IMG/VR virus record: IMGVR_UViG_2690315994_000023
Direction: 5' to 3' (one strand)
Origin: a virus
Taxonomy: Duplodnaviria; Heunggongvirae; Uroviricota; Caudoviricetes
DNA length: 16,663 nucleotides
The notes below the pieces were generated by a model. The model searched no databases and was not told where the DNA came from. It was given only the letters and a program-made list of their open reading frames with translations. This document shows, one piece after another, positions 1 through 16,456 of this stretch (its first letter is position 1; each line of letters opens with the position of its first letter). The position numbers and the translations under genes were made by a program.

Positions 1-171
1 TACCGCCGTGAAGGTTACGAATATGATTGCGTGATGCCTGTTTATCAGTTCCGGCGTGATTTTTCTCTGGTACAGACCGCGCCGCATAACGTGCCCACCA
101 GCAACGCCAGGGCACGGGCAAACATCCAGAAGCTGAAAACCATGGTTAACGGATTCAGGGGCAAGAAATGA
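1..171 (+). CDS. 3' end of an upstream ORF (5'-truncated by the window edge), hypothetical protein
   Basis: Frame 1 is open from position 1 to TGA at 169..171, and the stop overlaps the ATG of the next gene (ATGA at 168..171). It is under 60 aa so absent from the ORF track. The second island has an analogous small ORF coupled to its replicase (11592..11873). Confidence 0.35.
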   Translation, partial: YRREGYEYDCVMPVYQFRRDFSLVQTAPHNVPTSNARARANIQKLKTMVNGFRGKK

Positions 172-740
172 AAAGCGCACCGAACTTAAAAAAACAGCCT
201 TACGACAAGATGACCGAAGTCATTATTTTTGCGGGTAGTGATGCCTGGGCACATGCGAAACAGTGGCAGGAACAGGACGGGCGACTGGCTGGCGATAATG
301 TGCCTCCCGTTGTGCTGGCTGATGATCAACTGGATGAACTGGCAGACCTGAGAATCATCGACGAGGGGCGCTATTGTGTCCGGCTGTACAAGGCAGGCCA
401 CATCAGGCCATCAAATATTAATGCCATTGCGCACAAGCTGGCGGCGGCGGGTGTAACTGATGCGAATTATTACCCCGAAGGGATGCACAGCCATATGCGG
501 GAGAACTGGCGCGAATACCTGGAACGGGTGCGCGGGAAAGAGCCGGCGGAAGAAAAAAACCACCAGCGAAAAACCACGCTACCGATGAGCGTTGGATCTA
601 CCGGATACGACACGCAACTGGATTACGTGGTTAAGGGGATTATTCCGGCGGTATCGCTATGCAGCATATACGGGGCTAGCGGGTCCTATAAATCATTCCT
701 TGCCGGATCGTGGGCGTGCCATGTTGCCACTGGTCGCTAG
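168..740 (+). CDS. Replication initiator, N-terminal part: conserved N-domain plus Walker A P-loop, ending at an in-frame TAG
   Basis: The first ~105 aa align with the N-terminus of the replicase at 11857..13545 (shared FAGSDAW, HAK, AGD..PPV, QLD.L..LRIID.GR, KLA.AGV). The ORF ends just after a P-loop-like IYGASGSYKSFLAG motif, at TAG 738..740. Confidence 0.75.
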   Translation: MKSAPNLKKQPYDKMTEVIIFAGSDAWAHAKQWQEQDGRLAGDNVPPVVLADDQLDELADLRIIDEGRYCVRLYKAGHIRPSNINAIAHKLAAAGVTDANYYPEGMHSHMRENWREYLERVRGKEPAEEKNHQRKTTLPMSVGSTGYDTQLDYVVKGIIPAVSLCSIYGASGSYKSFLAGSWACHVATGR

Positions 741-779
741 TGGGGAGGCCGCAGGGTTGCACATGGTGCGGTTCTCTAT

Positions 780-1568
780 GTGGTTGGTGAAGGCGGTATA
801 GGTGTTCCGCGTCGTGTAAAAGCCTGGGAGGTTGTGCACGATGAGCAGGTGAAAAATCTGTATCTGGTAAACCGCCCCATCTTTCCGGCTGCCCCGCTTG
901 ATGTTGATGAAATGGTTATCGCTGCCCGTCAGGTGGAGCGGGAAACGGGTAAACCTGTACGCATGATTATTCTGGATACGCTGGCGCGTTGCTTTGGTGG
1001 GAATGATGAAAATGATTCCCGTGATATGGGGGCGTTTATCCGTGGTTGTGACGAACTGAAACGACGCACAGGGGCCACGGTGCTGGTGGTTCACCATTCC
1101 GGCAAGGATGAGACGAAAGGCGCGCGCGGTTCCAGTGCATTTCGTGCTTCGCTGGATGCTGAATACCGGATACGCAGGGAGGACGCAGGAAGCGAAGCGC
1201 TGGTTATCTCATGCACCAAAATGAAGGACGCGGAGGAACTCAAAGAAGCCGCATATGACTTACGCGTGGTGGAGCTTTTTACCGACGCTGACGGTGAATT
1301 AATCACGTCGCTGGTGGTGGTGGATGATCCGCGCCCTCCTGTTGAACTGGAGCGCATCGAGGAGGCAGGGAACAAGACGGAAAACCATACCGCGCTATGG
1401 GGATGCATACGTTCACGCACACAGCACGGCGACAAGTGCACGATCCCGCTGTTACGTGACGATATGAAAAAGCTGGGGTATGACACAAAACACCTTAAAC
1501 GATGGTTAGCCAAACTGGAAAAAGACGACGTGATCTACATTGACGGTGATGATGTAGGACCACTGTAA
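780..1568 (+). CDS. Replication initiator, C-terminal part: RepA/DnaB-like RecA-fold ATPase core
   Basis: It is in the same frame as 168..740 (both starts are 0 mod 3). Read-through gives ...ACHVATGR-TAG-WGGRRVAHGAVLYVVGEGG..., the layout expected after Walker A in RepA-like helicases. VLVVHHSGKDETKGARGSSAFRASLD resembles the conserved helicase core. The GTG at 780 has no Shine-Dalgarno, so it is probably not an independent gene. Confidence 0.7.
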   Translation: MVGEGGIGVPRRVKAWEVVHDEQVKNLYLVNRPIFPAAPLDVDEMVIAARQVERETGKPVRMIILDTLARCFGGNDENDSRDMGAFIRGCDELKRRTGATVLVVHHSGKDETKGARGSSAFRASLDAEYRIRREDAGSEALVISCTKMKDAEELKEAAYDLRVVELFTDADGELITSLVVVDDPRPPVELERIEEAGNKTENHTALWGCIRSRTQHGDKCTIPLLRDDMKKLGYDTKHLKRWLAKLEKDDVIYIDGDDVGPL

Positions 1569-1569
1569 A

Positions 1570-1767
1570 AAGTGGGCATTAAAAGTGGGAAAGGTGGGCG
1601 ATTTAACGGAATTTTAACAAAATTACCCACTTTCCCACGTGTATATATCCCAAAAAGTGGGCACTAAAAAAATACCTATGAAACAAGATGATATAAATCC
1701 CAAATTTCCCACGTTGGACGAAGTGGGAAAACGTAAAAAGTGGGCGAAAAAAGTGGGTAGAGGTGGG
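1570..1767. repeat. Iteron array, putative origin of replication of island 1
   Basis: Eleven copies of a 7-bp core. AAGTGGG or AGGTGGG sits at 1570, 1583, 1592, 1655, 1721, 1738, 1751 and 1761. Its reverse complement CCCACTT or CCCACGT sits at 1626, 1634 and 1708. An A/T-rich stretch (1601..1625) lies between the clusters, directly downstream of the replicase. Confidence 0.6.
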
Positions 1768-1770
1768 CAA

Positions 1771-2022
1771 ATGACTCAAAAACACAGAGACAGAACAGAG
1801 CCAAAATATAAAGCGTTAGACATGACAGAGCACGCCTTAAAGGTGGCAATCAGAACGATAGACCGCCACGCGGGGGAAGGATACGCGAAAGCACATCCCG
1901 AACTGATAAGCGCATTCATGACCACGACGGCGGCAAATTTTGCCACGCTGACAGAGCGGGAGATTGCGGAAGCTGAACAGGTGACAACCATCAACGTTAA
2001 AACCGGAGAGGTGGAATCATGA
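1771..2022 (+). CDS. Hypothetical protein (83 aa), translationally coupled to ssb
   Basis: ATG at 1771 is preceded by GAGGTGGG (Shine-Dalgarno-like). The track ORF 1639..2022 extends upstream through the iterons, and that extension is probably not coding. The stop overlaps the ssb start (ATGA at 2019..2022). Confidence 0.45.
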   Translation: MTQKHRDRTEPKYKALDMTEHALKVAIRTIDRHAGEGYAKAHPELISAFMTTTAANFATLTEREIAEAEQVTTINVKTGEVES

Positions 2023-2429
2023 CAGCACAGATAGCAGCTTACGGGCGGCTGGTGGACGACCCGCAGGTAAAACAGACCAGCAAGGGCACACCAATGACGC
2101 TGGCACGTATGGCGGTATCGTTGCCATGTAGTCAGGCGCAGGATGGGCAGGCTACGTTATGGCTATCGGTCATCGCATTTGGTAAGCAGGCCGACTTCCT
2201 GGCTAAACATCAAAAAGGCGATGTTGCCAGCGTATCCGGCACGATGCAGGTCAGCCAGTGGACCGGACAGAACGGGGAAACGCGGCAGGGTTATCAGGTT
2301 ATTGCAGACAGCGTAATCAGTGCCCGTGCGGCACGTCCTGGCGGGAACAGACGCAAAACCACAGGCACACAGGGTAATCAGCCACCAGCGGGAGGCGATG
2401 ACCCTTACGGTGACGGTATTCCGTTCTGA
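2019..2429 (+). CDS. ssb: Single-stranded DNA-binding protein (SSB, OB-fold)
   Basis: The OB-fold region (LWLSVIAFGKQADFLAKHQKGDVASVSGTMQVSQWTGQNGETRQGYQVIADSV) parallels the bacterial SSB core. It is followed by a Gly/Pro/Gln-rich linker and an acidic tail ending DDPYGDGIPF, matching the SSB C-terminal D-D-D-I-P-F type tip. Confidence 0.85.
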   Translation: MTAQIAAYGRLVDDPQVKQTSKGTPMTLARMAVSLPCSQAQDGQATLWLSVIAFGKQADFLAKHQKGDVASVSGTMQVSQWTGQNGETRQGYQVIADSVISARAARPGGNRRKTTGTQGNQPPAGGDDPYGDGIPF

Positions 2430-2439
2430 GGGGGTGGCG

Positions 2440-2712
2440 ATGGTACATGACCGCATAGCGGAAGAACTCGAGGCGAAAGGCTTTTACCGGAGGGCGGCGG
2501 CGCGATGGGGTGAAGTCATGCTGCTGGTGGAGACAGACAAGGAACGGCATCAGGTTACGATGCGACGGCTGGAATGTTCCAGGAAGGCACAGAAGCCACC
2601 GGAGCCGCCGGATAACTTCGGAGACCTGAGAAAGGCAGTAGATCGCACTTATGCTGAAATGGGTATAGATGGTGTAAGCGATGAAATATGGCGAAATTAC
2701 CAGGACAGATAA
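2440..2712 (+). CDS. PerC-family small transcriptional regulator (probable)
   Basis: A 90-aa protein starting at ATG 2440 (Shine-Dalgarno GAGGGGGTGG). The N-terminal IAEELEAKGFYRRAAARWGEVM matches, from memory, the PerC-family signature (AE.LE.KG..RRAA.RW). The track ORF 2320..2712 is an upstream extension overlapping ssb. Confidence 0.5.
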   Translation: MVHDRIAEELEAKGFYRRAAARWGEVMLLVETDKERHQVTMRRLECSRKAQKPPEPPDNFGDLRKAVDRTYAEMGIDGVSDEIWRNYQDR

Positions 2713-2718
2713 TCACAC

Positions 2719-2741
2719 AGCCGGAGCAATCCGGCTTTTTG
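2719..2741 (+). terminator. Rho-independent terminator after the PerC-like gene
   Basis: AGCCGGA-gcaa-TCCGGCT hairpin followed by TTTTTG. Confidence 0.7.
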
Positions 2742-2860
2742 TCATGTTTTGTAAATTATTTGTTCGTGGTTGTTCCACGTTGCTCGCTGACCGGAACGGC
2801 ATATTTTACCCGACCTGAATCATGATTATTCTCGCCCGTGGTGCCAGGACGCTGGGGCCA

Positions 2861-2910
2861 TTTTCCCGCCTGTTAATGTGCTCGCCAATATTCATTACCA
2901 GGCGGGAAAA
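2861..2910. promoter_or_regulatory. Perfect 12-bp inverted repeat (TTTTCCCGCCTG ... CAGGCGGGAAAA) with 26-bp spacer, upstream of the capsid gene
   Basis: Arms at 2861..2872 and 2899..2910 are exact reverse complements. The repeat lies in the ~285-bp leader between the PerC-like gene and the capsid operon. It has T upstream and A downstream on both strands, so it is not a terminator. Confidence 0.4.
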
Positions 2911-2999
2911 CGATCGGTGCGATTACTGATTTCCTTATGAAAAACGGTTGAGTGTTTGCCGCGTCCTGGAGTTCCTTACTTAACCCCAGGACTTTTTTT

Positions 3000-4157
3000 A
3001 TGCCGAGAATAATCGAATTACGCCAGCAGAAAACCGCCATTAAAAATCAGATGCGCGACATGCTGGAGAACGCGGAAAAAGAAAACCGCAGTCTTAACGA
3101 TGCTGAGGGCGCAAAATTTGACGAATTACGCGCTAAAGCTGAATCCCTCGATAAAGACATTTCCCGCCTTGAAGCCATTGCAGACGAAGAGCGCAGCAAG
3201 CCAGGTAAAAGCAGCCAGACCACTGACCCCGCAGAATTACGCAACTACATTCTGACAGGTGAAACCCGCGCATTAAGTACAGGCGTTCCCGCTGATGGTG
3301 GTTATACCGTTATCCCCGAACTGAACACCGAAATCATGCGAATGCTGACGGATGAATCCACCATGCGCCGCATCTGTACCGTGAAGAAAATCAGCAGCAA
3401 CGAGTTTAAGCAGCTTGTTTCCGCTGGCGGTGCGACCGTTAACCACGGTGAAGAGGGTAAGACACGCGAACAGACCAGCACCCCGCAGATTAACGAGGTG
3501 AGCATTAAGCTGTATCCGGTCTATGCGTACCCGCGCACCACACAGGAAATCGTGGATTTTTCCGATGTGGACATCCTTTCATGGCTGACGGGTGAGATTG
3601 GCGACACCTTCACGGAAACCGAAGAAAGCGATCTGGTTGTGGGCGACGGTGACAAAAAAGCAAAAGGCTTTTTATCCGTACCCCGTGCAGAGAAGAACGA
3701 CAAAGAGCGTGATTTTGGTACGTTACAGGTAATTAAACCTTCCGAATCTCTGGCGTGGACATCTGCGGACCCGCTGATCGACCTGAAATTTGCATTACAT
3801 AAAAAATACCGCAAAAACGCGGTCTGGGTGGTTAACTCCACGACGGCCGCAAAACTTCAGAAGGTGAAGAACGCGAACGGTGATTACATCTGGCGCGACC
3901 GTTTACAGGCGGGTGATCCTGATACGTTGCTGGGCCTTCCGGTCGAATATCTGGAGTTTATGCCTGATAACGTTATTGCCCTGGGTGACTTCAAACGCGG
4001 TTACTACATTGTTGATCACGAAACAGGTGTTCGCACCAGACCGGACAACCTCACAGAGCCGGGCTTCATCAAAATTTTCACGCAGAAATATTTAGGCGGT
4101 GGCGTGGTGGATTCGAACGCGATCAAGATTCTGGAACTGCCACAGGACGACGATTAA
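3000..4157 (+). CDS. Major capsid protein, HK97 family, with N-terminal scaffold-like delta domain
   Basis: ATG at 3000 with AGGA 8 nt upstream. The N-terminal ~100 aa are coiled-coil and charged (IIELRQQKTAIKNQMRDMLENAEKENRSLNDAEGAKFDELRAKAESL), typical of the HK97 delta domain. Length and C-terminal region fit the HK97 capsid fold. Context is protease and portal immediately downstream. Confidence 0.88.
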   Translation: MPRIIELRQQKTAIKNQMRDMLENAEKENRSLNDAEGAKFDELRAKAESLDKDISRLEAIADEERSKPGKSSQTTDPAELRNYILTGETRALSTGVPADGGYTVIPELNTEIMRMLTDESTMRRICTVKKISSNEFKQLVSAGGATVNHGEEGKTREQTSTPQINEVSIKLYPVYAYPRTTQEIVDFSDVDILSWLTGEIGDTFTETEESDLVVGDGDKKAKGFLSVPRAEKNDKERDFGTLQVIKPSESLAWTSADPLIDLKFALHKKYRKNAVWVVNSTTAAKLQKVKNANGDYIWRDRLQAGDPDTLLGLPVEYLEFMPDNVIALGDFKRGYYIVDHETGVRTRPDNLTEPGFIKIFTQKYLGGGVVDSNAIKILELPQDDD

Positions 4158-4167
4158 CAGCATACAG

Positions 4168-4188
4168 AAGGGGCTTAAAAGCCCCTTT
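4168..4188 (+). terminator. Hairpin plus T-run between capsid and protease genes (possible attenuator)
   Basis: AAGGGGC-ttaaaa-GCCCCTT followed by TAGTGTTTT. Confidence 0.4.
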
Positions 4189-4211
4189 AGTGTTTTATGG
4201 GTGAAAAAATT

Positions 4212-4769
4212 ATGAAGAGTATGGAAATCCGGTCATCGGAAATCACCACCAGCGCCAGCAACACGCTTACAGGCTACGTTGTTCGCTGGGATAACCTTTC
4301 AGAGCTGCTATGGGGGGAGTTTTACGAAAAATTCCAGCGGGGAGCGTTTACTGAATGGCTTGCAGCGGGTAATGACGTTCGCGGCCTGTATGAGCATGAC
4401 CACAGCATGTTACTGGGGCGCACCCGTTCCGGCACGCTGAAACTGGAAGAGGACGACACAGGGTTACGCTTTGAACTGACCCCACCGGATACCAGTACAG
4501 GGCGGGACGTTATCGAACTGGTTAAACGAGGTGATATATCCGGCATGAGCTTTGGCTTTCGCTCCCGTAAGGATGTATGGGATACCACAACAGATCCATG
4601 CGTGCGCACCGTGCTGGTGGCGGAACTGTACGAAATTACCGTTACATCCGTACCGGCTTACCCTGATTCCGGCGTGGAGCTGGCCCGCCGCTCCCTGTAC
4701 GAGCAGCACCCCGAAAAAATGCCGCGTGCGGATAATCGCCGCTGGTGGGCGGATTTAGCGGGGGTGTGA
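4212..4769 (+). CDS. Prohead maturation protease, HK97 family
   Basis: Motifs GYVVRWDN, LYEHD, LGRTRSGTLKLEEDDTGLRFE, GDISGMSFGF and ELYEITVTSVPAYPDS fit HK97-type prohead proteases. ATG 4212 has GGTGA upstream; the alternative ATG at 4197 has no ribosome binding site. Confidence 0.85.
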   Translation: MKSMEIRSSEITTSASNTLTGYVVRWDNLSELLWGEFYEKFQRGAFTEWLAAGNDVRGLYEHDHSMLLGRTRSGTLKLEEDDTGLRFELTPPDTSTGRDVIELVKRGDISGMSFGFRSRKDVWDTTTDPCVRTVLVAELYEITVTSVPAYPDSGVELARRSLYEQHPEKMPRADNRRWWADLAGV

Positions 4770-4770
4770 T

Positions 4771-5982
4771 ATGTGGCCTTTCAGAAGAAAAAAAGAGCAG
4801 CGCAGCATGACGCTTGATGAGTTTATGGCGCTGGCCGGCACATCGAACACGGGGGCGGGTGAGTACGTATCATCGGGGACAGCGGAATCACTGCCCGCCG
4901 TCATGAACGCCGTGACGGTCATCTCTGAGGCGGTGGCTACCATGCCGTGTTACCTGTACCTGGTACGCAATGAGAAGGGGAAGGAGGCCCGCGAGTGGCT
5001 TGATTCTCATCCGGTCGATCACATCCTCAACGAGCGCCCGAACGCGTGGCAAACCCCCTACCAGTTTAAGCGAATGATGATCCGCCACTGCCTGTTAAAC
5101 GGTAATGCTTATGCGGTGATTCGGTGGGGGCGTGATGGTTTTCCGGTGGCTTTACATCCTTACCCGCCGCAGTCGGTGAACGTGGAGCAGACAGGTGAGC
5201 ATAACTGGCGCTACTGCATCACTGACGCCTACACCGGAAACACCCGCAACTATTTACCGTGGGAGGTTCTCCACCTTCGTTACTCCACGGATGACGGTTT
5301 TATGGGGCGCTCACCTGTAACCATCTGCCGCGAATCGCTGGGGCTTGGGCTGGCCCAACAACGCCACGGCGCGAGCGTGATGCGTGATGGCATGATGGCG
5401 GCAGGGGTTATCACGTCAGGCGAATGGCTGGACGGCGTGAAGGGCAAACAGGCATTAGCCGCACTGGAACGCTACAAAGGGGCCAGAAACGCCGGAAAAA
5501 CGCCCATCCTTGAAGGGGGTATGAGCTATCAGCAGCTGGGCATGAGTAATCAGGATGCTGAATGGCTGGCCTCCCGTCGCTTCACCATTGAAGACATCGC
5601 CCGAATGTTCAACGTCTCGCCGATTTTTTTGCAGGAATACAGCAACAGCACCTACAGCAATTTCAGCGAGGCAAGCCGCGCATTTCTCACCATGACGATG
5701 CGCCCGTGGCTGGCGAACTTTGAGCAGCAGATAAAAAACGCCCTGCTGGTGGCCTCACCTGTACCTGGTATCCGGTATCAGGTGGAGTTTGACAGCGCGG
5801 ACCTGTTACGGGCCACACCTGGCGAACGCTTTGCCACCTATGAACGCGGCATCAAATCCGGCGTTATGTGCCCGAACGAAGCCCGCGAACGTGAAGGGCT
5901 GTCCCCGCGTGATGGTGGTGATGAGTTCAGCCAGGCATGGAAACAGGAAGTAAAAATCAGCGAGGGAGAAAAACCGGAATGA
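4771..5982 (+). CDS. Portal protein, HK97 family
   Basis: A 403-aa protein starting 2 nt after the protease stop. Its length, composition and position in the head module fit phage portal proteins. Confidence 0.85.
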   Translation: MWPFRRKKEQRSMTLDEFMALAGTSNTGAGEYVSSGTAESLPAVMNAVTVISEAVATMPCYLYLVRNEKGKEAREWLDSHPVDHILNERPNAWQTPYQFKRMMIRHCLLNGNAYAVIRWGRDGFPVALHPYPPQSVNVEQTGEHNWRYCITDAYTGNTRNYLPWEVLHLRYSTDDGFMGRSPVTICRESLGLGLAQQRHGASVMRDGMMAAGVITSGEWLDGVKGKQALAALERYKGARNAGKTPILEGGMSYQQLGMSNQDAEWLASRRFTIEDIARMFNVSPIFLQEYSNSTYSNFSEASRAFLTMTMRPWLANFEQQIKNALLVASPVPGIRYQVEFDSADLLRATPGERFATYERGIKSGVMCPNEAREREGLSPRDGGDEFSQAWKQEVKISEGEKPE

Positions 5983-6317
5983 ACATAGGGCGACTGCGTG
6001 ACAGGGTAACGATTCAGACCCTGAAACAGACCAGGGATATAACCGGCGAAATACTCGAAACGTGGGTGGACGGTCACACACTCTGGGCAAGCGTGAACAT
6101 GATCAGCAGCAAGGAGGCCATTTCATCGGGTGCAGAACTGGCGACTGGAACGGTAAGGATATGGATACGCTACAGGAAGGACATCAACGCCACCAGCCGG
6201 ATAAAGGTCAATACGGGGCCGCTGGCGGGGCGTGTACTGAATATCATCGGGCAGCCGCTGCCGGATGCCGCCAGGACACGCCTTGAAATTCTTTGTCGTG
6301 AGGGCGCGGAAAAATGA
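5979..6317 (+). CDS. Head-closure / head-tail joining protein (SPP1 gp16-like)
   Basis: ATG overlaps the portal stop (ATGA). A ~112-aa protein with RDRVTIQ ... GTVRIWIRYRKDI ... RVLNIIG motifs typical of phage head-tail joining proteins. Confidence 0.7.
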   Translation: MNIGRLRDRVTIQTLKQTRDITGEILETWVDGHTLWASVNMISSKEAISSGAELATGTVRIWIRYRKDINATSRIKVNTGPLAGRVLNIIGQPLPDAARTRLEILCREGAEK

Positions 6318-6610
6318 CAGAAGAACTTATCACCCTGGAAGAAGTGAAACTCCATTGCCGCATCGATGGCGACGAGGAAGACCAGTTAATCAGCGGATAC
6401 ATTGCCGCATCGCTTGAGGCGTGCCAGATACATATAGGCAGGCGCTTTGATGACGGGCTGGAGTTCACGCCAGCCATAAAGATTGGCTGCATGATGTTTA
6501 TCGCTCACCTGTACGAGAATCGCCAGCTGGTAGCGGATAACGCAAAAACGCGCGTACCCATGACGATTGGCGCGCTCTGGACGGCTTACCGTGATGTGGG
6601 GGTGTACTGA
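6314..6610 (+). CDS. Head-tail connector / DNA-packaging adaptor (gp6-like)
   Basis: ATG overlaps the previous stop. The N-terminal LITLEEVKLHCRIDGDEEDQLI and the IAHLYENR motif match gp6-like head-tail connector proteins. Confidence 0.7.
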   Translation: MTEELITLEEVKLHCRIDGDEEDQLISGYIAASLEACQIHIGRRFDDGLEFTPAIKIGCMMFIAHLYENRQLVADNAKTRVPMTIGALWTAYRDVGVY

Positions 6611-7050
6611 TGCCGTGGCAACCATTAAGACGATGCACAGAACCAGGCTGTAACAGGCGCGTGAAGTCCGGCAAGTGTGAGGAGCACAGGCGGGCGGCAT
6701 GGCGTGCAGAGGATGCCAGACGAGGACACCGCCGCGCGCGTGGGTACTCCAGACAGTGGGACAAATACCGCGCCATGTATCTGAGTAAAAACCCGTTATG
6801 CGTGCGATGCCTTGAGAAGGGGATATATACGCCCGCCGTGGTGGTGGATCACATTATCCCGATTAATGGCGGTGATGATGTTCTCTTCTGGCCCGAATGG
6901 AACCATCAACCATTGTGCCAGGCGTGTCATAACCAGAAAACGAAATGGCTTGATCCGGCAACAAAAAGCAAGCGTGCCGCAGGTGGATTTCATGAAGAGG
7001 AAGAACGGGCCGCTAACCGCAATAACTGGATGTATGACGCTGATGAATGA
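6610..7050 (+). CDS. HNH endonuclease (phage packaging-associated)
   Basis: Cys-rich zinc-binding motifs (CTEPGC..., CVRC) and the HNH signature VDHIIP ... NHQPLCQACHNQKT. It sits immediately upstream of terS/terL, as in cos-type HK97-like phages. Confidence 0.85.
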   Translation: MPWQPLRRCTEPGCNRRVKSGKCEEHRRAAWRAEDARRGHRRARGYSRQWDKYRAMYLSKNPLCVRCLEKGIYTPAVVVDHIIPINGGDDVLFWPEWNHQPLCQACHNQKTKWLDPATKSKRAAGGFHEEEERAANRNNWMYDADE

Positions 7051-7216
7051 GCGGGAACAAAACCGCCTTATCCGTGGACTTATAAGGCAGCGTGACGCAT
7101 GGAAGACACAGGAAACAGGGCATAAAGATAAAGCGTCAGGACGCGCAGAACGCATCACAGCGAAGCGATTAACCGACCGTGACCGCGAGGTTATGGAATG
7201 TTTCCGCAATCGCTGA
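7034..7216 (+). CDS. Hypothetical small basic protein (about 60 aa)
   Basis: ATG at 7034 (or 7043) in a frame overlapping the HNH 3' end. The track ORF 6812..7216 is an implausible upstream extension inside HNH. Confidence 0.3.
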   Translation: MTLMNEREQNRLIRGLIRQRDAWKTQETGHKDKASGRAERITAKRLTDRDREVMECFRNR

Positions 7217-7227
7217 TGAGGCTGTAT

Positions 7228-7272
7228 GACGGGGTGGGGGGCGTTTTCAGGACAAACCCGACCCCGCCGGGC
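7228..7272. other. Candidate cos / terminase recognition region (G-run and C-run imperfect dyad)
   Basis: GACGGGGTGGGGGGCG, a 13-bp spacer, then CCCGACCCCGCCGGGC, in the only sizeable intergenic gap between HNH and terS. Confidence 0.25.
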
Positions 7273-7339
7273 ACCGAACGCCTCCTCAAATTTTTATGCA
7301 CGGGAATTTTTTGAAAAATAATCTGGCGAAAAAATAAGC

Positions 7340-7696
7340 ATGGCAAGACCACCGAAAGCCCCCGCCTACCTGGATGATATCGCCGTGAAGCAGTGGCGGG
7401 AAAAATCGCGGCAGCTTGCGGAACGGGGAGACCTTACCCCCGCCGACTGGAGTAATCTGGAACTGTATTGTGTCAACTACTCCATTTACCGGAAAGCCGT
7501 TGCAGACCTTGCGGCGCGCGGGTTCAGCATTGTTAACAGTCAGGGCGGCGAGAGCAGAAACCCCGCATTAAGCGCAAAATCCGACGCTGAAAGAGTGATG
7601 ATAAAAATGGCCTCCTTGCTCGGTTTTGACCCGATAAGCCGCCGTAAAAATCCACCGGAAACAGAAGAAGAGGACGAGCTTGACCGCCTGGAATAA
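7340..7696 (+). CDS. terS: Terminase small subunit, P27 family
   Basis: A 118-aa protein directly upstream of and overlapping terL. The N-terminal PKAPAYLDDIAVKQWREKSRQLAERGDLTPADWSNLELYCVNYSIYRKA matches P27-family small terminases. Confidence 0.75.
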   Translation: MARPPKAPAYLDDIAVKQWREKSRQLAERGDLTPADWSNLELYCVNYSIYRKAVADLAARGFSIVNSQGGESRNPALSAKSDAERVMIKMASLLGFDPISRRKNPPETEEEDELDRLE

Positions 7697-9341
7697 GTAC
7701 GCAGAAGACGTAAAAACGGGCAAAATTCCGGCCTGTAAACGGCTGAAACAGGCCGTTAAACGGTACTTTTCGGACCTTGAAAGCCCCCTTTACACGTTCG
7801 ATCGTGAGGTTGTGGAGCGGTTTATTGCCTTTTCCAGGGTGTGCCCGCACGTAAAAGGCGCAATGCGCGGTAGCCCCATTGAGCTGGAGCCGTGGCAGCA
7901 GTTCGCCTTTGCGTGCATCCTCGGCTTTAAGGTTAAGGCCACCGGACGGCGCAAATACACGAGCGCCTTTATCGAAGTGCCGCGCAAAAATGCGAAATCC
8001 ACGACCGCCGCGATTCTGGCTAACTGGTTTTTGATTATGGAGAACGGTCAGCAGGATATCTACACCGCAGCGGTGAGCCGTGACCAGGCGCGGATCGTCT
8101 TTGATGATGCGCGTCAGATGTGCCTTTTATCCCGACCGTTACGCAGGCGGGTGAATATTCAGGCGCATAAGGTGATACACCCGAAAAGCAACAGCCTGTT
8201 AAAGCCGCTGGCAGCAAAAGCGGCAACCATTGAAGGTACAAACCCGAGTCTTGCCATTGTGGATGAATATCACCTGCACCCTGACAACGGGGTTTATTCC
8301 GCGCTTGAACTGGGAATGGGGGCGCGTCCGGAGGGGCTGTTATTTGCCATCACCACATCGGGGAGCAACGTTGTTTCAGCCTGTAAACAACACTACGACT
8401 ATTGCTGCCAGATACTGGATGGTGAAGAGGTGAACGAATCCATGTTCGTGCTGATTTACGAGCTGGATGATGAAAGCGAGGTTGACGATCCGGCGATGTG
8501 GATAAAGGCGAATCCAAATATCGATGTTTCCGTCGATCGTGAAAAACTGGCCTCAACCATCCAGAAAGCGCGGGGTATTCCGTCGCAGTGGGTGGAAATG
8601 CTCACCAAGCGATTCAATATCTGGTGTCAGGGGGCTACGCCGTGGATGGGTAACGGTGCATGGGCGGAGTGCGCCGGAACGTTCACGGAGGAAGATTTAC
8701 ACGGCCAGGAGTGTTACGCGGGGCTGGATTTATCATCCACAAGCGATATTTCCAGCGTGTGCTATGCCTTTCCGGTCGGTAAAACCATTATGCTGGTTTC
8801 CCGTCATTATCTGCCGGAGTTCCAGCTACAGAACCCCGCCAATAAAAACCGCGCTGTCTATCGTCAGTGGGCTAAAGCGGGCTGGATACGCACAACGCCT
8901 GGCGACTGCATTGATTACGACCGGATCAGAGATGACATCATGCAGGACGCGGAGAAATTTAATATCAGGCTGGTGGGCTTTGATACGTGGAACGCCACGC
9001 ATCTCAGAACGCAATTACAGGGGGCAGGTTTTGAGGTGGAGCCGTTCCCGCAAACCTACCTCAGATTCAGTCCGGCGGCGAAATCGTTCGAAGTTTTTGT
9101 TAACCGCAGGGTGATTGTGCATCGTGGCGATCCGGTGTTGTCCTGGTCGATGAGTAACGTTGTGATGCAGAGTGACGCGAACGCCAATATCAAGCCGAAC
9201 AAGAAAAAATCACCGAACAAGATAGACCCGAGCGTGGCGGCACTGATGGCGTTTGGCACATTCCAGGCAGAGCATGAGGATTTTGAATTCGATATGAGCG
9301 ATAGCCATAAGCAGCGACTTGCCGAATTTACCGGGATTTGA
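7680..9341 (+). CDS. terL: Terminase large subunit
   Basis: A 553-aa protein with a Walker A-like segment (EVPRKNAKST), a Walker B-like stretch (LAIVDEYH) and a C-terminal nuclease-like region. The start is uncertain: TTG at 7680, overlapping the terS 3' end. Confidence 0.88.
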   Translation: MTAWNKYAEDVKTGKIPACKRLKQAVKRYFSDLESPLYTFDREVVERFIAFSRVCPHVKGAMRGSPIELEPWQQFAFACILGFKVKATGRRKYTSAFIEVPRKNAKSTTAAILANWFLIMENGQQDIYTAAVSRDQARIVFDDARQMCLLSRPLRRRVNIQAHKVIHPKSNSLLKPLAAKAATIEGTNPSLAIVDEYHLHPDNGVYSALELGMGARPEGLLFAITTSGSNVVSACKQHYDYCCQILDGEEVNESMFVLIYELDDESEVDDPAMWIKANPNIDVSVDREKLASTIQKARGIPSQWVEMLTKRFNIWCQGATPWMGNGAWAECAGTFTEEDLHGQECYAGLDLSSTSDISSVCYAFPVGKTIMLVSRHYLPEFQLQNPANKNRAVYRQWAKAGWIRTTPGDCIDYDRIRDDIMQDAEKFNIRLVGFDTWNATHLRTQLQGAGFEVEPFPQTYLRFSPAAKSFEVFVNRRVIVHRGDPVLSWSMSNVVMQSDANANIKPNKKKSPNKIDPSVAALMAFGTFQAEHEDFEFDMSDSHKQRLAEFTGI

Positions 9342-9343
9342 AT

Positions 9344-9535
9344 ATGCTCAAACACAAGAAAATTGAGTCTGTGATCGACGAAATGGCACGTCAATTAGGC
9401 CATGAACTTAACGGGCAGGATAAGCTGGTAATCCGCACTAAAACAGCTATGGTGTTGGCCGCTAAACAGCGGTACCGTCAGCGCATGGAAGCGCCACCCT
9501 ATCAGTGGCGAAAGCCAGATAAATTAAGGCGTTGA
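9344..9535 (+). CDS. Hypothetical small protein (63 aa), last gene of the packaging operon
   Basis: ATG 9344 lies 3 nt after the terL stop, and a strong terminator follows. Confidence 0.4.
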   Translation: MLKHKKIESVIDEMARQLGHELNGQDKLVIRTKTAMVLAAKQRYRQRMEAPPYQWRKPDKLRR

Positions 9536-9556
9536 AAGAGGTTCATCCCCCTACAA

Positions 9557-9588
9557 AGCACCAGTATTGTTCTGGTGCTTTTTTGTTT
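9557..9588 (+). terminator. Rho-independent terminator at the end of island 1
   Basis: Perfect 8-bp stem AGCACCAG / CTGGTGCT with a 7-nt loop, followed by TTTTTTGTTTGTT. Confidence 0.8.
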
Positions 9589-9601
9589 GTTCAGAAAAAG
9601 C

Positions 9602-9625
9602 TGTATAAACATTTGTATAAACATT
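9602..9625. repeat. Perfect tandem direct repeat, 2 x TGTATAAACATT
   Basis: Copies at 9602..9613 and 9614..9625, between two terminators in the island junction. Confidence 0.6.
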
Positions 9626-9632
9626 AATAAAA

Positions 9633-9662
9633 AAGGCGCTTCCCCATGCCGAGTAGCGCCTT
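9633..9662. terminator. Bidirectional-type terminator hairpin (A-run, stem, T-run)
   Basis: AAAAAAGGCGCT, a 14-nt loop, then AGCGCCTTTTT. Confidence 0.6.
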
Positions 9663-9873
9663 TTTAATCAAGCAGTTAGCTAAATTGAATTAGTTCATGC
9701 CGTATTGTAAAATACAGAGTCATTATACGTAATTTATTATCACTCTAGATAATTTGTATTCATCATAAATAATTGATGCAGAACGAGATATTTATTTTTT
9801 ATTGGCTCGCATTGTATCATCAGTTATCAGTTACTCCCTGCATACAGTTGTCAAAAAGGTTGTCATTAACTCT

Positions 9874-11109
9874 ATGGCCGAAAATAAACTCTCAGATGTT
9901 CAATTGCGTGCGTTAACCCGCAAAGTCATCGAAAAACCTTTTGATGTTGCTGACGGTGGCAGCCTTTCTGTTCGCGTTACACCATCAAGGCGCAAAATCC
10001 TTGATGGCGAGAAGAGACCGGCCAATAACATCCAATGGTTGTTCCGTTATAAGAATAAGCATAAAAGCGCCAATACTTTGACGCTAGTGCTGGGCAAGTA
10101 TCCTGCCTTATCTCTTGCTGAGGCGAGGGTGAAACGCGACCAATGCAAACGGTGGCTTGCTCATAATCTAGATCCTAAAGACCAGTTTGACCAAGAGTCA
10201 GCAAAAACCATGAAACCTGTCACTATCAGGGAAGCATTGGAACGCTGGATTAATGAGTACGCGGCGGAAAACCGGGTCAACTTTGAAAGGCATAGACGCC
10301 AATTCGAAAGACATATTTATCCTTTCATCGGCGAATTGCCACTTGAACAGTGCTCTAAAGCAAGATGGATGGAGACATTTAGCAGAATCAAAAAAGTCGC
10401 GCCGGTAGCAAGCGGCTACATATTAGGTAACTGCAAGCAGGCGTTGATTCACAACCGCAGGCTGCACGATGTTTACAGTGATGCGCTGGAGGATATCAAA
10501 GTTACTGATGTTGGAAGAAAGCAGGCAAAACGTGATCGTGTTTTAACTTCTGAAGAACTTAGTGGCCTTTGGAATGCGCTAAAAAGCGAATATGCGTTTC
10601 TACCTTACTACACCGCGCTTTTAAAATTGCTAATAGTGTTTGGTGCAAGAACACAAGAAATTCGTCTTTCGACATGGTCGGAATGGAACGTGAAAGAATG
10701 GATTTGGACAGTTCCGCGAGAACATAGCAAGGGTGGGGAGAAAATCATCAGACCCGTGCCTGAATCTATACAGCCATTTATTTTACAGCTACGCCAAAAT
10801 CATCTTGATAGCGGAATGCTGCTTGGTGAAATGAAGAAACCCGAAGCTGTCAGCCAGTGGGGGCGTATCTTATACAGGCGATTAGAGCATTCAACGCCGT
10901 GGACGTTGCATGACCTGCGCCGCACTTTTGCCACCAGTCTAAATAACTTGGGGATAGCCCCGCATGTGGTTGAACAGTTGCTGGGCCACTCAATGCCAGG
11001 AGTGATGGCGGTGTACAACCGTAGCCAGTACATCCCGGAAAAACGGTTAGCCTTGGACAAATGGATAAAATATTTAGAAAAAATAAACCTTTTAAAATCA
11101 GATAATTAA
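9874..11109 (+). CDS. int: Tyrosine recombinase / integrase, P4 type
   Basis: An N-terminal arm-binding-like region (LSVRVTPSRRKILDGEKRPANNIQWLFRY) and a C-terminal catalytic region with HDLRRTFATSL and LLGHS...AVYNRSQY (tyrosine nucleophile). ATG 9874 is preferred over the track's TTG at 9802. Confidence 0.88.
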   Translation: MAENKLSDVQLRALTRKVIEKPFDVADGGSLSVRVTPSRRKILDGEKRPANNIQWLFRYKNKHKSANTLTLVLGKYPALSLAEARVKRDQCKRWLAHNLDPKDQFDQESAKTMKPVTIREALERWINEYAAENRVNFERHRRQFERHIYPFIGELPLEQCSKARWMETFSRIKKVAPVASGYILGNCKQALIHNRRLHDVYSDALEDIKVTDVGRKQAKRDRVLTSEELSGLWNALKSEYAFLPYYTALLKLLIVFGARTQEIRLSTWSEWNVKEWIWTVPREHSKGGEKIIRPVPESIQPFILQLRQNHLDSGMLLGEMKKPEAVSQWGRILYRRLEHSTPWTLHDLRRTFATSLNNLGIAPHVVEQLLGHSMPGVMAVYNRSQYIPEKRLALDKWIKYLEKINLLKSDN

Positions 11110-11218
11110 AAATTGATGATTATATAGAGTTATGTAGCGTTATTTGCAGTTAAGTTTATGAATTTAAAGGGTATTTACTGCTGATACAATTTGAGTATTA
11201 TTGTCATGTAGTAATAAA

Positions 11219-11243
11219 AAGCCCCCAGCAGAACTGAGGGCTT
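11219..11243 (-). terminator. Hairpin followed by a T-run only on the minus strand
   Basis: AAGCCC-c-CAG loop CTG-a-GGGCTT. The + strand has AATAAAAA upstream, so the U-run is on the minus-strand transcript, and no T-run follows on the + strand. Confidence 0.35.
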
Positions 11244-11403
11244 GAATAAGGCGGGGATCGGTTCACGTCGCCAAACAGAAAACCGAACCCCTTAATACCA
11301 AAAAGCCGGTGAAGGCTGTAATGGTCGCGTTCTTTGTTAACGCAACATAATCATAAATCATTACAGACCACATATCCACCGGCCATGTTTTGAGGGCCGT
11401 AAG

Positions 11404-11583
11404 ATGGAATTACTGACTGCTAAGCAAGTCACAACACTAACAACATTATCCCGCATGACTATCTGGCGCTATATCCAGGCTGGCACGTTTCCTAATTGCA
11501 TAAAATTAGGGCCAAAACGCGTGGCCTGGCGGCGCAAAGATGTTATGGCGTGGCTTGAAAGCCGCCAGCCAGTACAGCGCTGA
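11404..11583 (+). CDS. alpA: AlpA-family (MerR-like HTH) prophage transcriptional regulator
   Basis: A 59-aa ORF, below the track cutoff. LLTAKQVTTLTTLSRMTIWRYIQAGTFPNCIKLGPKRVAWRRKDVMAWLESRQ matches the AlpA helix-turn-helix pattern. It sits directly downstream of int, as in P4-like elements and PICIs. Confidence 0.8.
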   Translation: MELLTAKQVTTLTTLSRMTIWRYIQAGTFPNCIKLGPKRVAWRRKDVMAWLESRQPVQR

Positions 11584-11591
11584 GGTGGCTT

Positions 11592-11873
11592 ATGAAGAAA
11601 ACAACCGTAAATCAGGCTATCAGTCGCTATAACAGCCTGTTGCGTAACCCACAGCGCCAGTTAACCGTTGGCGAACTTACCGCCCAGCGTATGGCGGCAG
11701 CACAATTATTGTTGCAAGCATGCATTCGCGAAGGTGTAAACCGCCCGTGGACTATTGTTTCACGTCACGCCGCTATGGCTGATAGCCTGGTGCCGTTTCG
11801 CATCAGCGATTCTGAATCATGGGCGATGTATCTGGAGTTAAAACGCGGGGTGCGATATGAGAAACGCGCCTAA
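11592..11873 (+). CDS. Hypothetical protein (93 aa), translationally coupled to replicase 2
   Basis: ATG 11592 follows the GAGGTGG Shine-Dalgarno, and the 3' end overlaps the replicase start by 17 nt. Confidence 0.5.
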   Translation: MKKTTVNQAISRYNSLLRNPQRQLTVGELTAQRMAAAQLLLQACIREGVNRPWTIVSRHAAMADSLVPFRISDSESWAMYLELKRGVRYEKRA

Positions 11874-13545
11874 CGTTAAGCTATTACCTAAAGACCCTTT
11901 TACGGAAGCAATTATTTTTGCCGGTTCTGACGCTTGGAGCCATGCCAAGGGCTGGGAAGAAGGAATGGGTAAACAAGTTGCCGGTGACACTACTCCTCCT
12001 GTCTATCTTGGGCCAAGACAACTGGATGATTTAGATAATCTACGAATTATCGACGATGGTCGCCGGTCTGCGCGGGTATATCTGGCTGGTGATATTAAGC
12101 AACTTCAAATCAGCACTATTGCTGACAAGCTGGCAGTGGCTGGAGTTAAGGAAGCCCGTTTATTTAAAGGCATTACTGACCGTGAACCGGAAAAATGGAA
12201 CATGGACAGGCTTAGAGACGCCGCCCTACGCGGTGAAAGCCTGGTGGGCATGCTGCGCAAAGAAGAACGAGCAACCGCCGCAGCAACTGTAAAAGACATT
12301 CACGATATGGCTCCTGTATTAATGACAACCTGGCCAAATATTGGAAGCAATGGCCAGCCTTTAAACACACGCCCTAATGTTGAACGTCTATTAGATAACT
12401 ACAGCATTTCTGCAAAATATAATGAGATTAGCAAGGACGTTGAGGTTTTAGTACCTGGCGTTAGTGGCGGTTCAGATGCTCGCGATAACTGCGCTGTGAG
12501 TGAAATTTTAAGCCTCGCCGCACTGAACCGGTTACCAATGAGTAATATTGAAGGTCATATCAAAACTATCGCTGTGCGCAATACTTATAATCCTGTCAGG
12601 GATTTCATCAATCAACGTGAATGGGATGGACGAAGCCGATTTGCAGACCTGCTGAATACTATCAGCACGCCAGATGACTACAGTCGCGATCTGCTGGCCA
12701 TGCTGGTGCGTCGTTGGTTGCTGTCTGCCGTGGCGGCTGCTTACTTAGAAGCGGGTTTCTGGTCCAAAGGCGTGCTGGTTTTCCAGGGCGAGCAGTCACT
12801 GGGTAAAACAGCATGGTTTAAAGCGCTTCTGCCCCCTGACAATCGCAACCTGGTTAAGGTGGGAGCAACTATTGACCCCGGCAATAAAGACAGCGTGGCC
12901 AGCGCAATTAGTCACTGGCTTGTTGAGCTAGGCGAATTGGATGCGACGTTTCGCAAGGCGGATATTGCCAAGCTCAAAGCATTTATCAGCCAGGACCGTG
13001 ATGACCTGCGCCGCCCTTATGACCGGCTTGAATCGAAGTACCAGCGCCGCACCGTGTTTTTTGCGTCAGTGAACCCGAAACACTTCCTGGCGGATGACAC
13101 CGGGAACGTGCGCTGGTGGACCATTCCTGTAACTGCCGTTAACTACGAGCATGGCATAGACACACAACAATTATGGGCCGAAGTTCTTTCCTGGTTTGAA
13201 GCAGGTGAACGCTGGTGGCTGGATCGTGATGAAGAAGCCATGCTGGAAGTAGTGAACGAACAGCACGGGCAAACTGACCCGATTGAAGAAATGATATTGG
13301 CGCGTTTTGATTGGAACAGTGATCGCCTGGCTGCATATATAGAAATGACTGCAACGGATGTTCTGTTGTCTATTGGGCAGGATCGGCCAACAAAATCCCA
13401 GGCAACGCAGTGCGGTAACATTCTGCGAAAACTGACTGGAAGGGATGCACGTAGAACAAGTAAAGGGCGTTTTTACCTAATGCCACCGAAAGTTTTTGGA
13501 CAGCAAGACCATAGCTATTTTGATGGGCCTAACCGCCAGTTTTGA
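11857..13545 (+). CDS. Replication initiator: conserved N-domain + P4-alpha/VirE-like P-loop NTPase (primase-helicase type)
   Basis: The N-terminal ~105 aa are homologous to those of ORF 168..740. The central and C-terminal part has Walker A GEQSLGKTAWFKAL and downstream motifs (LVELGELD, RTVFFASVNP) of the P4-alpha / D5 / VirE-type superfamily-3-like NTPase found in satellite primases. Confidence 0.8.
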   Translation: MRNAPNVKLLPKDPFTEAIIFAGSDAWSHAKGWEEGMGKQVAGDTTPPVYLGPRQLDDLDNLRIIDDGRRSARVYLAGDIKQLQISTIADKLAVAGVKEARLFKGITDREPEKWNMDRLRDAALRGESLVGMLRKEERATAAATVKDIHDMAPVLMTTWPNIGSNGQPLNTRPNVERLLDNYSISAKYNEISKDVEVLVPGVSGGSDARDNCAVSEILSLAALNRLPMSNIEGHIKTIAVRNTYNPVRDFINQREWDGRSRFADLLNTISTPDDYSRDLLAMLVRRWLLSAVAAAYLEAGFWSKGVLVFQGEQSLGKTAWFKALLPPDNRNLVKVGATIDPGNKDSVASAISHWLVELGELDATFRKADIAKLKAFISQDRDDLRRPYDRLESKYQRRTVFFASVNPKHFLADDTGNVRWWTIPVTAVNYEHGIDTQQLWAEVLSWFEAGERWWLDRDEEAMLEVVNEQHGQTDPIEEMILARFDWNSDRLAAYIEMTATDVLLSIGQDRPTKSQATQCGNILRKLTGRDARRTSKGRFYLMPPKVFGQQDHSYFDGPNRQF

Positions 13546-13554
13546 GGTGATACT

Positions 13555-13779
13555 ATGAGTTATCGCGTATATATCATTGCTTTTGACCCGGAACACGGCA
13601 CCTACACCGAAACCGAAATCATGGAAGGTTTCGCCACTGAACAGGAAGCGGTAGACCATGCTCGCAATAGGCTGCCAGAGGTGCAGCAGGAACTGGCCAA
13701 GTTGGGTGAAAACCTGCTATGCAGCTACCGCATAAGGGTAGTGGATTCCGCTGAAATCTTGCCGTTTCTCCGCTCATAA
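13555..13779 (+). CDS. Hypothetical protein (74 aa)
   Basis: ATG 13555 follows the GAGGTGA Shine-Dalgarno, and a terminator lies downstream. Confidence 0.45.
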   Translation: MSYRVYIIAFDPEHGTYTETEIMEGFATEQEAVDHARNRLPEVQQELAKLGENLLCSYRIRVVDSAEILPFLRS

Positions 13780-13802
13780 TATCACAACGGTTGTTACCCA
13801 TT

Positions 13803-13834
13803 GCCCTGGCGAATGCCGGGGCTTTTTTTATTTT
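13803..13834 (+). terminator. Rho-independent terminator
   Basis: GCCCTGGC-gaat-GCCGGGGC hairpin followed by TTTTTTTATTTT. Confidence 0.7.
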
Positions 13835-13848
13835 CAAAGTGACGCCTA

Positions 13849-14151
13849 GGTGTCATTAATTTATAAGGTGTCATGGTAGGTGTCATTGTTCTCAAGCCAT
13901 AACCCGCAAGGGTTGCGACATTACTAATGACACCTATGACACCTATGACAGCATTTTTAAAGAAAATAACGACCACTGTAATAATGTAACAGTGGTCGTT
14001 ATACTTTATAGAAATGGGTGTCATGGTGTCACAGGTGTCATTCATTACAGTATCTTGTTTGTATTTTTCTTTAATAATCAGCGTGTTTCCCGCTATGACA
14101 CCTAATGACACCTTTCCAACATAACGCCGTCATGGTGACATTAGGTGTCAT
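13849..14151. repeat. Iteron array, putative origin of replication of island 2
   Basis: GGTGTCAT at 13849, 13867, 13879, 14017, 14034 and 14144. Its reverse complement ATGACACC at 13927, 13936, 14095 and 14105. Variants GGTGTCAC at 14025, GGTGACAT at 14134, and a partial at 13945. The array has an AT-rich centre. Confidence 0.65.
13966..14002. repeat. Perfect 14-bp inverted repeat (ATAACGACCACTGT / ACAGTGGTCGTTAT) with 9-bp AT spacer, at the centre of the iteron array
   Basis: Exact reverse-complement arms at 13966..13979 and 13989..14002. Confidence 0.6.
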
Positions 14152-14545
14152 CGCCATCTGCTGCCAAAAAAGTCAAGGTACTTCCGAGGGGGGTACAGCC
14201 TGCGGGGGCATTGGTCCCGCGTAATTCGCGTTGTGCGTGCCCCTACAAAACTCACTTTATGATTACGTCAAGTAAATCAATCATTTATGTGAATCCTATC
14301 AAAGCACTGGAACCATAATTGCGAGATTGCAAAATAAAGCGAACACGTTTTACACACGCTGAATTGTAAAGATGTGTAAATATCGATTACGCCGGATTAT
14401 GCCTGGTTATTTGCAAGTATTCATGGTTATAAGTTACTGATTTTACATTAAAAAGCTCACATTGTGGCTATTGTGTTCGGCCTGGTTACTGTATATCTTT
14501 AAGTCATTCCAGACGATTTATTGCACAACAACCGGAGCATTTTTA

Positions 14546-15430: not shown

Positions 15431-15432
15431 TC

Positions 15433-15747: not shown

Positions 15748-15750
15748 GCC

Positions 15751-15915: not shown

Positions 15916-16129
15916 TGGCCAAGAATACAGGTTTCACCGGTTCCCTGTGCCCCAAATAACCGGCCAAATTTAACCTTCATCGTTCCTCAGACGATGGATG
16001 CTGGAACCAGGTTGGTGGTCATCCTGGACGGTCAAAACCACCACTAATTCCACACCGGTTGCGCCGCACCTGTCACCTAAAAGCGCGCACTCACTTAATC
16101 ATCAACAACTATTGTTAGCGGCCAATACT

Positions 16130-16447: not shown

Positions 16448-16456
16448 GGGGGCACC

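Follow-up and report, generated by a model that had tools for sequence, protein, structure and literature searches.

Phage-inducible chromosomal islands of the capsid-forming kind (cf-PICIs) are a class of satellites, described in 2022-2023, which make their own capsids and take only tails. They span 10-18 kb and carry a recombinase together with replication and regulation modules, with no lysis genes and no complete tail module (He et al. preprint; de Sousa et al. 2023, PMC10085698). Classical Gram-negative PICIs contain int, alpA, pri-rep and at most a capsid-morphogenesis gene plus terS/rpp, and have no portal, connectors or terL (PMC10085698). According to published work on the cf-PICI prototype, EcCIEDL933, a helper prophage triggers the island via AlpA; after excision the island replicates from its own Rep/iteron origin, its capsid, protease and portal proteins build small T=4 HK97-fold capsids, its HNH-TerS-TerL machinery packages island DNA, and its adaptor and connector proteins dock helper-phage tails. 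Transfer requires every EcCIEDL933 packaging gene, induction requires alpA (10.1101/2022.09.08.507074), and the T=4 capsid is 47.5 nm across with a capacity of 15.5 kb (cryo-electron microscopy (cryo-EM) study of the EcCIEDL933 capsid). Here we describe a window of 16,663 nt, meaning the whole stretch of DNA that was analyzed, which corresponds to positions 1-16663 of contig CYBJ01000003.1 (GCA_001284825.1). We conclude, with a probability of about 0.92, that window 1-9704 is the right-hand 9.7 kb of an approximately 15.6-kb EcCIEDL933-type cf-PICI located at the 3' end of fis in an Escherichia coli-type chromosome.

Gene content, identity and ends of the satellite

Genes were identified from a six-frame open reading frame (ORF) listing and Pfam scans, and the small ORFs were rescanned against PHROGs (Table 1). 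All genes of 1-9535 lie on the + strand, with a coding share of 93%. A preliminary description of this DNA, made from the sequence alone, had proposed a head and packaging set downstream of a replicase, an iteron origin and an SSB gene. This arrangement is borne out by the Pfam scans, in which every gene that it named has a match and the eight head/packaging families, with E-values of 1e-8 to 1e-90, form a contiguous + strand block at 3000-9341; the Pfam/PHROG profile search that it had suggested as a check supports the capsid, portal and terminase identities throughout. These are all eight head/packaging families of the cf-PICI definition. No tail, baseplate or lysis family was matched in 1-9704 in the Pfam and PHROG scans, in agreement with the earlier claim that 1-9535 holds no such gene, and three small extra ORFs (83, 60 and 63 aa) gave only PHROG matches of unknown function.

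We located EcCIEDL933 at NZ_CP008957.1 1680329-1694760 in the EDL933 chromosome. The DNA of window 1760-9335 is 96-98% identical to the prototype, apart from a 328-bp segment missing in the window, and twelve proteins (the 83-aa ORF, SSB, PerC, and capsid through TerL) are 89-100% identical, with SSB, TerS and the 60-aa ORF reaching 100%. SSB (100%) and PerC (98%) occupy the same place in the two islands, and a DUF4222 gene lies upstream of the replicase in EcCIEDL933 and 2013C-4991 as it does here. For proteins of the head and packaging module, identity to EcCIEDL933 is 94-100%, and the capsid protein matches at 384 of 385 residues the chain in PDB entry 9GYI, the solved EcCIEDL933 capsid, which is cited by the cryo-EM study of that capsid. 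The cf-PICI class proposed in the preliminary description is thus strongly supported. The portal, adaptor, connector and TerL genes at 4771-9341 set the element apart from classical, non-capsid-forming Gram-negative PICIs.

Close relatives are common. At least 80% of window 1-9800 is present in 340 complete E. coli genomes, and the close relatives are islands of approximately 14.5-15.5 kb that lack tail genes, lie between chromosomal genes and have int and alpA at their left end (EDL933, 2013C-4991, QL57EC). As both the prototype and hundreds of sequenced copies resemble it closely, we count the element as already known, that is, as a member of a known satellite class. The cf-PICI call matters mainly as a correct recognition from sequence alone, and the understanding of the class is unchanged by it.

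Since window position 1 is also the first position of the source contig and falls mid-element, the integrase and alpA genes of this copy were deduced from another assembly. A contig of GCA_024548525.1 (L007) is 100% identical to the window over a 737-nt overlap and reads, in order, acrEF-acrS-yhdU-yhdJ, attL, a 408-aa integrase, a 309-aa ORF, AlpA, a Rha-like ORF, small ORFs, DUF4222 and RepA. Genes for int and alpA are found at the left end both in L007 and in all three complete relatives inspected (EDL933, 2013C-4991 and QL57EC). No tail or lysis genes are present in the L007 left half, 5.9 kb counted from yhdJ, so that neither this half nor 1-9704 contains lysis genes or a complete tail module; a tape-measure gene nearby belongs to a second element (element 2, described below) and lies beyond that element's own att site and integrase. 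The composite island, combined from two assemblies, is 15.6 kb long and has att sites at its ends, and this approximately 15.6 kb does not contain the tail, baseplate/tip and lysis genes of a complete HK97-like prophage (~40 kb). The 309-aa ORF of L007 (5427-6356) sits between int and alpA, a usual slot for accessory or defence cargo, and has no Pfam or PADLOC match; QL57EC carries a DUF6387 gene in the same slot.

The right boundary of the island falls inside the window. The att direct repeats, for which the preliminary description had proposed a search, were found as an 82-nt repeat that is 94% identical between the right end in the window and the yhdJ-side attL of L007. The core, TTAGTTCATGCCGTA, corresponds to the last codons of fis in reverse complement, and it flanks elements in two further sequences (L002 and L003). 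Just inside the right end, a TGTATAAACA repeat pair lies at 9602 and 9614, and the same pair stands beside the integrase gene in L003 and L007, which makes these repeats candidate arm-type integrase sites. The preliminary description had let the operon end at strong terminators beside the integrase of another element. Hairpins are indeed present at 9555-9581 and 9630-9667, the second likewise followed by a T run, and an integrase gene occupies 9874-11109, but the element itself extends to the att core at 9690-9704 and not to 9535. Full-length matches to window 9290-9640 occur in no more than three of the complete genomes that carry a cf-PICI, QL57EC (98%) being one of them. Further hairpins lie inside the element, one of terminator type 3' of perC (2719-2736) and one 3' of the capsid gene (4167-4188). 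The intergenic region upstream of terS is a candidate cos site by analogy with the HNH-TerS-TerL (HK97-type) packaging described for cf-PICIs.

The broken replicase and the replication module

An in-frame TAG codon at 738-740 (Gln191>amber) splits the replicase ORF. Compared with the intact 466-aa gene of 2013C-4991, this is the single difference in 1401 nt, a C>T change at 738 that converts CAG to TAG, and it falls 15 codons past the Walker A motif GASGSYKS. Because of this amber codon, the Pfam AAA_25 match is split over two ORFs. The RepA-like replicase of the preliminary description does have a RepA-type (AAA_25) match, but the stop codon that leaves the gene in two fragments had been overlooked. 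Judged from its sequence, the replicase of this copy is a pseudogene that arose by a recent nonsense mutation, which suggests that autonomous replication was recently lost.

Exact-sequence look-ups of both fragments located the amber allele in two places only, the source assembly and an independent Logan read set (L009). The contigs L007, L008 and L010, in which the 190-aa fragment also seemed to be present, were considered as further carriers and rejected, as they break off at the codon and, if they extend as far as 738, have the wild-type C there. These three independent short-read contigs from other samples all stop at window-equivalent 737-739, precisely where the mutated codon lies; possible causes are a repeat boundary, an assembly bubble and an insertion-sequence (IS) insertion. 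The amber codon is also found inside a perfect 7-bp hairpin, CCACTGG-TCG-CCAGTGG, at 727-743.

With its replicase dead, this copy could presumably not replicate alone, and its transfer would be poor or would depend on a second RepA cassette complementing it in trans. All of its head/packaging genes are intact. A more severe interpretation is that the island is a cf-PICI by descent only and has become an inert relic, which neither amplifies nor transfers and is decaying. The amber codon lies in the only replicase gene, its allele is confined to the two sources named above, and inactivated copies do exist, since some of the copies in other complete genomes are broken by insertions or IS1 and are matched in two to three pieces. 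Nevertheless, we consider a relic unlikely, as the other genes of the element in the window, including all head/packaging genes, are intact and 89-100% identical to those of a functional prototype, the damage amounts to a single recent mutation (1 of 1401 nt), and low-level packaging without replication, or complementation in trans, may persist.

Several points weigh against assigning window 1-9704 to an EcCIEDL933-type cf-PICI. The left 5.9 kb is missing from both the window and the source contig, so that int and alpA of this copy are taken over from another assembly; induction, small capsids and transfer with helper tails were shown experimentally for the prototype, this copy being known from sequence alone; and the cos site is a candidate from its position only. 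In addition, the amber codon could be masked by a suppressor tRNA or by a second RepA cassette acting in trans, the latter being possible because up to three RepA cassettes occur per genome. We regard the replicase knockout, the mosaic of att site and ends, and the tandem insertion described below as modest additions to a known class. A natural cf-PICI with an otherwise pristine head/packaging module and a single-base replicase knockout could be used to test the role of replication in capsid formation and transfer.

The window copy encodes its own replication module, in which a RepA-family helicase gene (the one with the amber codon) is followed directly by iterons on either side of an AT-rich core. 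The 16.6-kb window holds seven exact copies of AAGTGGG, against about two expected window-wide, and all of them are inside 1570-1757, immediately 3' of the helicase stop codon; degenerate AGGTGGG and inverted TTTCCCAC and CCCACTTT copies are present as well. The core at 1601-1720 has a GC content of 0.34 with iterons on both sides. Position and layout match those of Gram-negative PICI origins (PMC6092414), and this region probably serves as the origin of replication.

Upstream of the TerL end, the sole module that differs from EcCIEDL933 is 523-1760, comprising the helicase domain and the iterons. The prototype has a DUF927 protein and TAACCCGCA iterons there, and the window has AAA_25 RepA and AAGTGGG. 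As iterons and helicase domain both differ, they are exchanged as one unit, and the N-terminal domain in front of them is conserved; window 1-522, which covers the DUF4222 gene and this N-terminal replicase domain, retains 74% DNA identity to EDL933. A domain of approximately 120 aa at the N terminus is common to three satellite replicases, namely AAA_25 RepA, the EcCIEDL933 DUF927 protein and the VapE replicase of element 2, with 50% identity between the N-terminal ~120 aa of RepA and the VapE N terminus. Behind it, ATPase domain and iterons are exchanged.

It had been suggested in the preliminary description that RepA, the unrelated iterons, SSB and PerC together might define an undescribed lineage, and this part did not survive. 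The helicase domain and iterons do differ from the DUF927 protein and TAACCCGCA of EcCIEDL933, but the prototype has both SSB and PerC, and the RepA/AAGTGGG cassette is found in 666 of the 5,426 complete E. coli genomes (with ≥99% identity in 285, and in up to three places per genome), often with the same head module. Several allelic Pri-Rep/ori variants, like PerC homologues, are a described feature of E. coli PICIs (PMC6092414; PMC11773190), and replicase exchange between PICIs and cf-PICIs has been published. We therefore consider an undescribed cf-PICI lineage highly improbable.

A second satellite adjoining the cf-PICI

From position 9705, the window is 99.9% identical to an island of approximately 9.3 kb, here called element 2, which other E. 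coli strains carry as the only island between yhdJ and fis. Element 2 extends past the end of the window (9705-16663 in the window); a full copy is found in L002 at 6078-15409. The att site at 9627-9704 bounds both elements, the cf-PICI on its right side and element 2 on its left, and therefore two unrelated satellites stand in tandem at one site. The tandem junction (9450-9950) is covered at ≥80% in none of the 5,426 complete E. coli genomes. Such stacking of two different satellites at one att site may be of use to specialists, and the neighbour is a less expected item than the cf-PICI itself.

Element 2 fits much of the description of a classical PICI, with int, alpA, a VapE-type pri-rep, an HK97-fold homologue and a size of approximately 9.3 kb. 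The HK97-fold homologue is a 294-aa protein that has no match in Pfam, PHROGs, PDB sequences or a tblastn search of 50,697 phage records. Its AlphaFold model gave 220 PDB matches at E≤1e-3 in Foldseek, and shells of HK97-fold capsids or of encapsulins make up nearly all of the 50 of these 220 that were listed, the SaPIbov5 Ccm and P4 procapsid structures among them; some homologues of the protein are fused to a prohead protease. The protein thus models as an HK97-fold capsid homologue. A 149-aa ORF found no match in the searches run, and a 105-aa ORF on the - strand (13794-14111), annotated as a hypothetical protein in related genomes, wholly overlaps the ATGACACC iteron array of the putative origin and is probably not a gene. 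Nothing was detected by PADLOC in eight accessory ORFs of both elements.

Element 2 also holds several small ORFs and, outside the classical description, a 757-aa tape-measure protein just past the window end, which is 66% identical to its counterpart in virulent Jilinvirus myophages; other element 2 proteins have no match in the 20-kb tail-proximal stretch of the Jilinvirus genome. Interpretation of the tape-measure gene as a Tai-type tail-assembly defence was rejected, the Tai paper naming tape measure in its reference list only. Relatives of element 2 that have no integrase come in two forms. In four read sets they are 9,062-bp circular contigs, each an exact rotation of the others; in E. 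coli, Proteus and Salmonella they are non-mobilizable plasmids of 8.9-9.3 kb. Primase types vary among the relatives (DUF5906, PriCT_2, toprim and VapE). In the literature searched, we found no description of satellites carrying tape-measure genes or of elements like element 2. It is tempting to speculate that element 2 belongs to an undescribed satellite family of approximately 9 kb, living as fis islands and as free circular plasmids, with swappable primase/helicases, an HK97-fold capsid homologue and a Jilinvirus-like tape measure, and that unrelated satellites use the 3' end of fis as a common landing pad and stack there; we hold this only tentatively, with the odds against it. Still weaker is the extension that the replicase-dead cf-PICI persists through stacking at fis.

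The shared att site and head-to-tail arrangement raise the question of whether the two satellites form one composite mobile unit with joint excision and transfer. Their integrases are homologous (54% identity), and tandem elements with related integrases could in principle excise via the outer att sites. Yet each element is found alone at the fis site in other genomes, the tandem junction is absent from the complete genomes mentioned above, and the iterons of the two elements differ, so that a composite unit has very little probability. Co-packaging of both islands was rejected on size, approximately 25 kb against a T=4 capsid capacity of approximately 15.5 kb.

Table 1. Positions of features in the 16,663-nt window and in related sequences, with the evidence for each
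Feature	Position	Strand	Evidence or remark
DUF4222 gene, 3' part	1..171	+	PF13973 on source-contig gene call; window and source contig begin inside the gene
RepA-family (AAA_25) helicase/replicase, predicted pseudogene	168..1568	+	Fragments 168-740 and 780-1568; Pfam AAA_25
Putative replication origin	1569..1770	.	Two AAGTGGG-type iteron sets flanking an AT-rich core
83-aa ORF, unknown function	1771..2022	+	phrog_1231; 89% identity to EcCIEDL933 counterpart
SSB	2019..2429	+	Pfam SSB, E 4e-17; 136/136 to EcCIEDL933 SSB
PerC-family regulator	2440..2712	+	Pfam PerC, E 1e-44; 88/90 to EcCIEDL933; true start 2440
HK97-type major capsid protein	3000..4157	+	Pfam Phage_capsid, E 1e-61; 384/385 to PDB 9GYI chain B
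Prohead serine protease	4197..4769	+	Pfam Peptidase_S78, E 3.5e-48; 99.5% to EcCIEDL933
Portal protein	4771..5982	+	Pfam Phage_portal, E 1e-90; 99.3% to EcCIEDL933
Head closure/head-tail adaptor	5979..6317	+	Pfam Phage_HCP; 93.8% to EcCIEDL933
gp6-like head-tail connector	6314..6610	+	Pfam Phage_connect_1; 99% to EcCIEDL933
HNH endonuclease of packaging machinery	6610..7050	+	Pfam HNH; 98.6% to EcCIEDL933
60-aa ORF, unknown function	7034..7216	+	phrog_3173; 60/60 to EcCIEDL933
Intergenic region between HNH block and terS, candidate cos site	7217..7339	.	Position only
Small terminase TerS (P27/Terminase_4 type)	7340..7696	+	Pfam; 118/118 to EcCIEDL933
Large terminase TerL	7680..9341	+	Pfam TerL_ATPase and TerL_nuclease; 97.6% to EcCIEDL933
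63-aa terminal ORF	9344..9535	+	phrog_7271; fis-site type of 3' end, not EcCIEDL933 type
Intrinsic terminator closing the packaging operon	9555..9581	+	10-bp stem with 5 GC pairs, then T run
Two tandem TGTATAAACATT repeats, candidate arm-type integrase binding sites	9602..9625	+	Tandem Repeats Finder
att site, cf-PICI right end and element 2 left end	9627..9704	.	fis terminator copy and core TTAGTTCATGCCGTA at 9690-9704
Element 2 tyrosine integrase	9874..11109	+	Pfam Phage_integrase, Arm-DNA-bind_3; 54% to fis-site cf-PICI integrase
Element 2 AlpA	11404..11583	+	Pfam
Element 2 orf93, between AlpA and replicase	within 11404..13545	+	
Element 2 VapE-type replicase	11857..13545	+	Pfam
Element 2 putative origin, ATGACACC iterons in both orientations	13849..14151	.	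10 of 11 window copies here, 0.6 expected
Element 2 HK97-fold capsid-protein homologue (predicted), 294 aa	14546..15430	+	AlphaFold model, pLDDT (predicted local distance difference test) 76; Foldseek
Element 2 relatives	L012-L016; NZ_CP083588.1, CP054330.1, NZ_CP104987.1, NZ_CP100673.1		Circles/plasmids without integrase
Shared replicase N-terminal domain	168-530; 11857-12220; L005 5039-5402		Sequence comparison

Comparison with known systems

Phage HK97 has a module of the same protein families and the same HNH-dependent, cos-type packaging logic, but it is a complete phage of 40 kb that also encodes tail and lysis functions, and its capsid is T=7. A PDB sequence search with the capsid protein returned no HK97 chain at E≤0.001, while a published structural overlay finds the capsid fold to be the same as in HK97 (cryo-EM study of the EcCIEDL933 capsid). 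That window 1-9704 is the head/packaging end of a regular HK97-like prophage, its tail and lysis genes lying further upstream, is a negligible prospect: the window begins at a contig end, which leaves the upstream region unseen in the source assembly, but in L007 the 5.9 kb upstream hold only int, alpA and small ORFs, then yhdJ, the close relatives examined are all islands of approximately 14.5-15.5 kb without tail genes, an att repeat is present at both ends, and the capsid is that of a T=4 satellite.

The closest complete relative is the island of 2013C-4991 (NZ_CP027355.1), which is 98% identical over 1-9335 and has the same RepA/iteron cassette; it differs in its intact RepA, its integrase, its insertion site (tqsA) and its 3' terminal ORF. 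The island of QL57EC (NZ_CP172108.1), in contrast, shares the yhdJ-fis site, the att core, the arm repeats, the 3' terminal ORF and the terminator, and its integrase region is 94% identical to that of the L007 left half. Its replicase, however, is a P4-family primase, its head/packaging DNA is only 70-77% identical, and no second satellite adjoins it.

The prototype itself is of similar size (15.4-15.5 kb, compared with approximately 15.6 kb here) and differs from the present element in several respects besides the helicase and iteron cassette. Between perC and the capsid gene, EcCIEDL933 carries an additional 328 bp that include a 74-aa ORF (L005 8511-8837, compared with window 2713-2999), a segment that is missing from 2013C-4991 too. 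It is inserted between roxA and phoQ, whereas the window element is at the fis 3' end, and the last ~400 bp and the att site are different, with similarity stopping at about 9307-9335. The amber codon in the replicase is found in the window copy. The cf-PICI described here is a mosaic that combines the head/packaging genes, SSB and PerC of the prototype with the helicase domain and iterons of a different, common cassette, and with the last ~400 bp and att site of the fis-site cf-PICI type, a clear case of module shuffling in which the integrase/att end has been exchanged independently of the head module.

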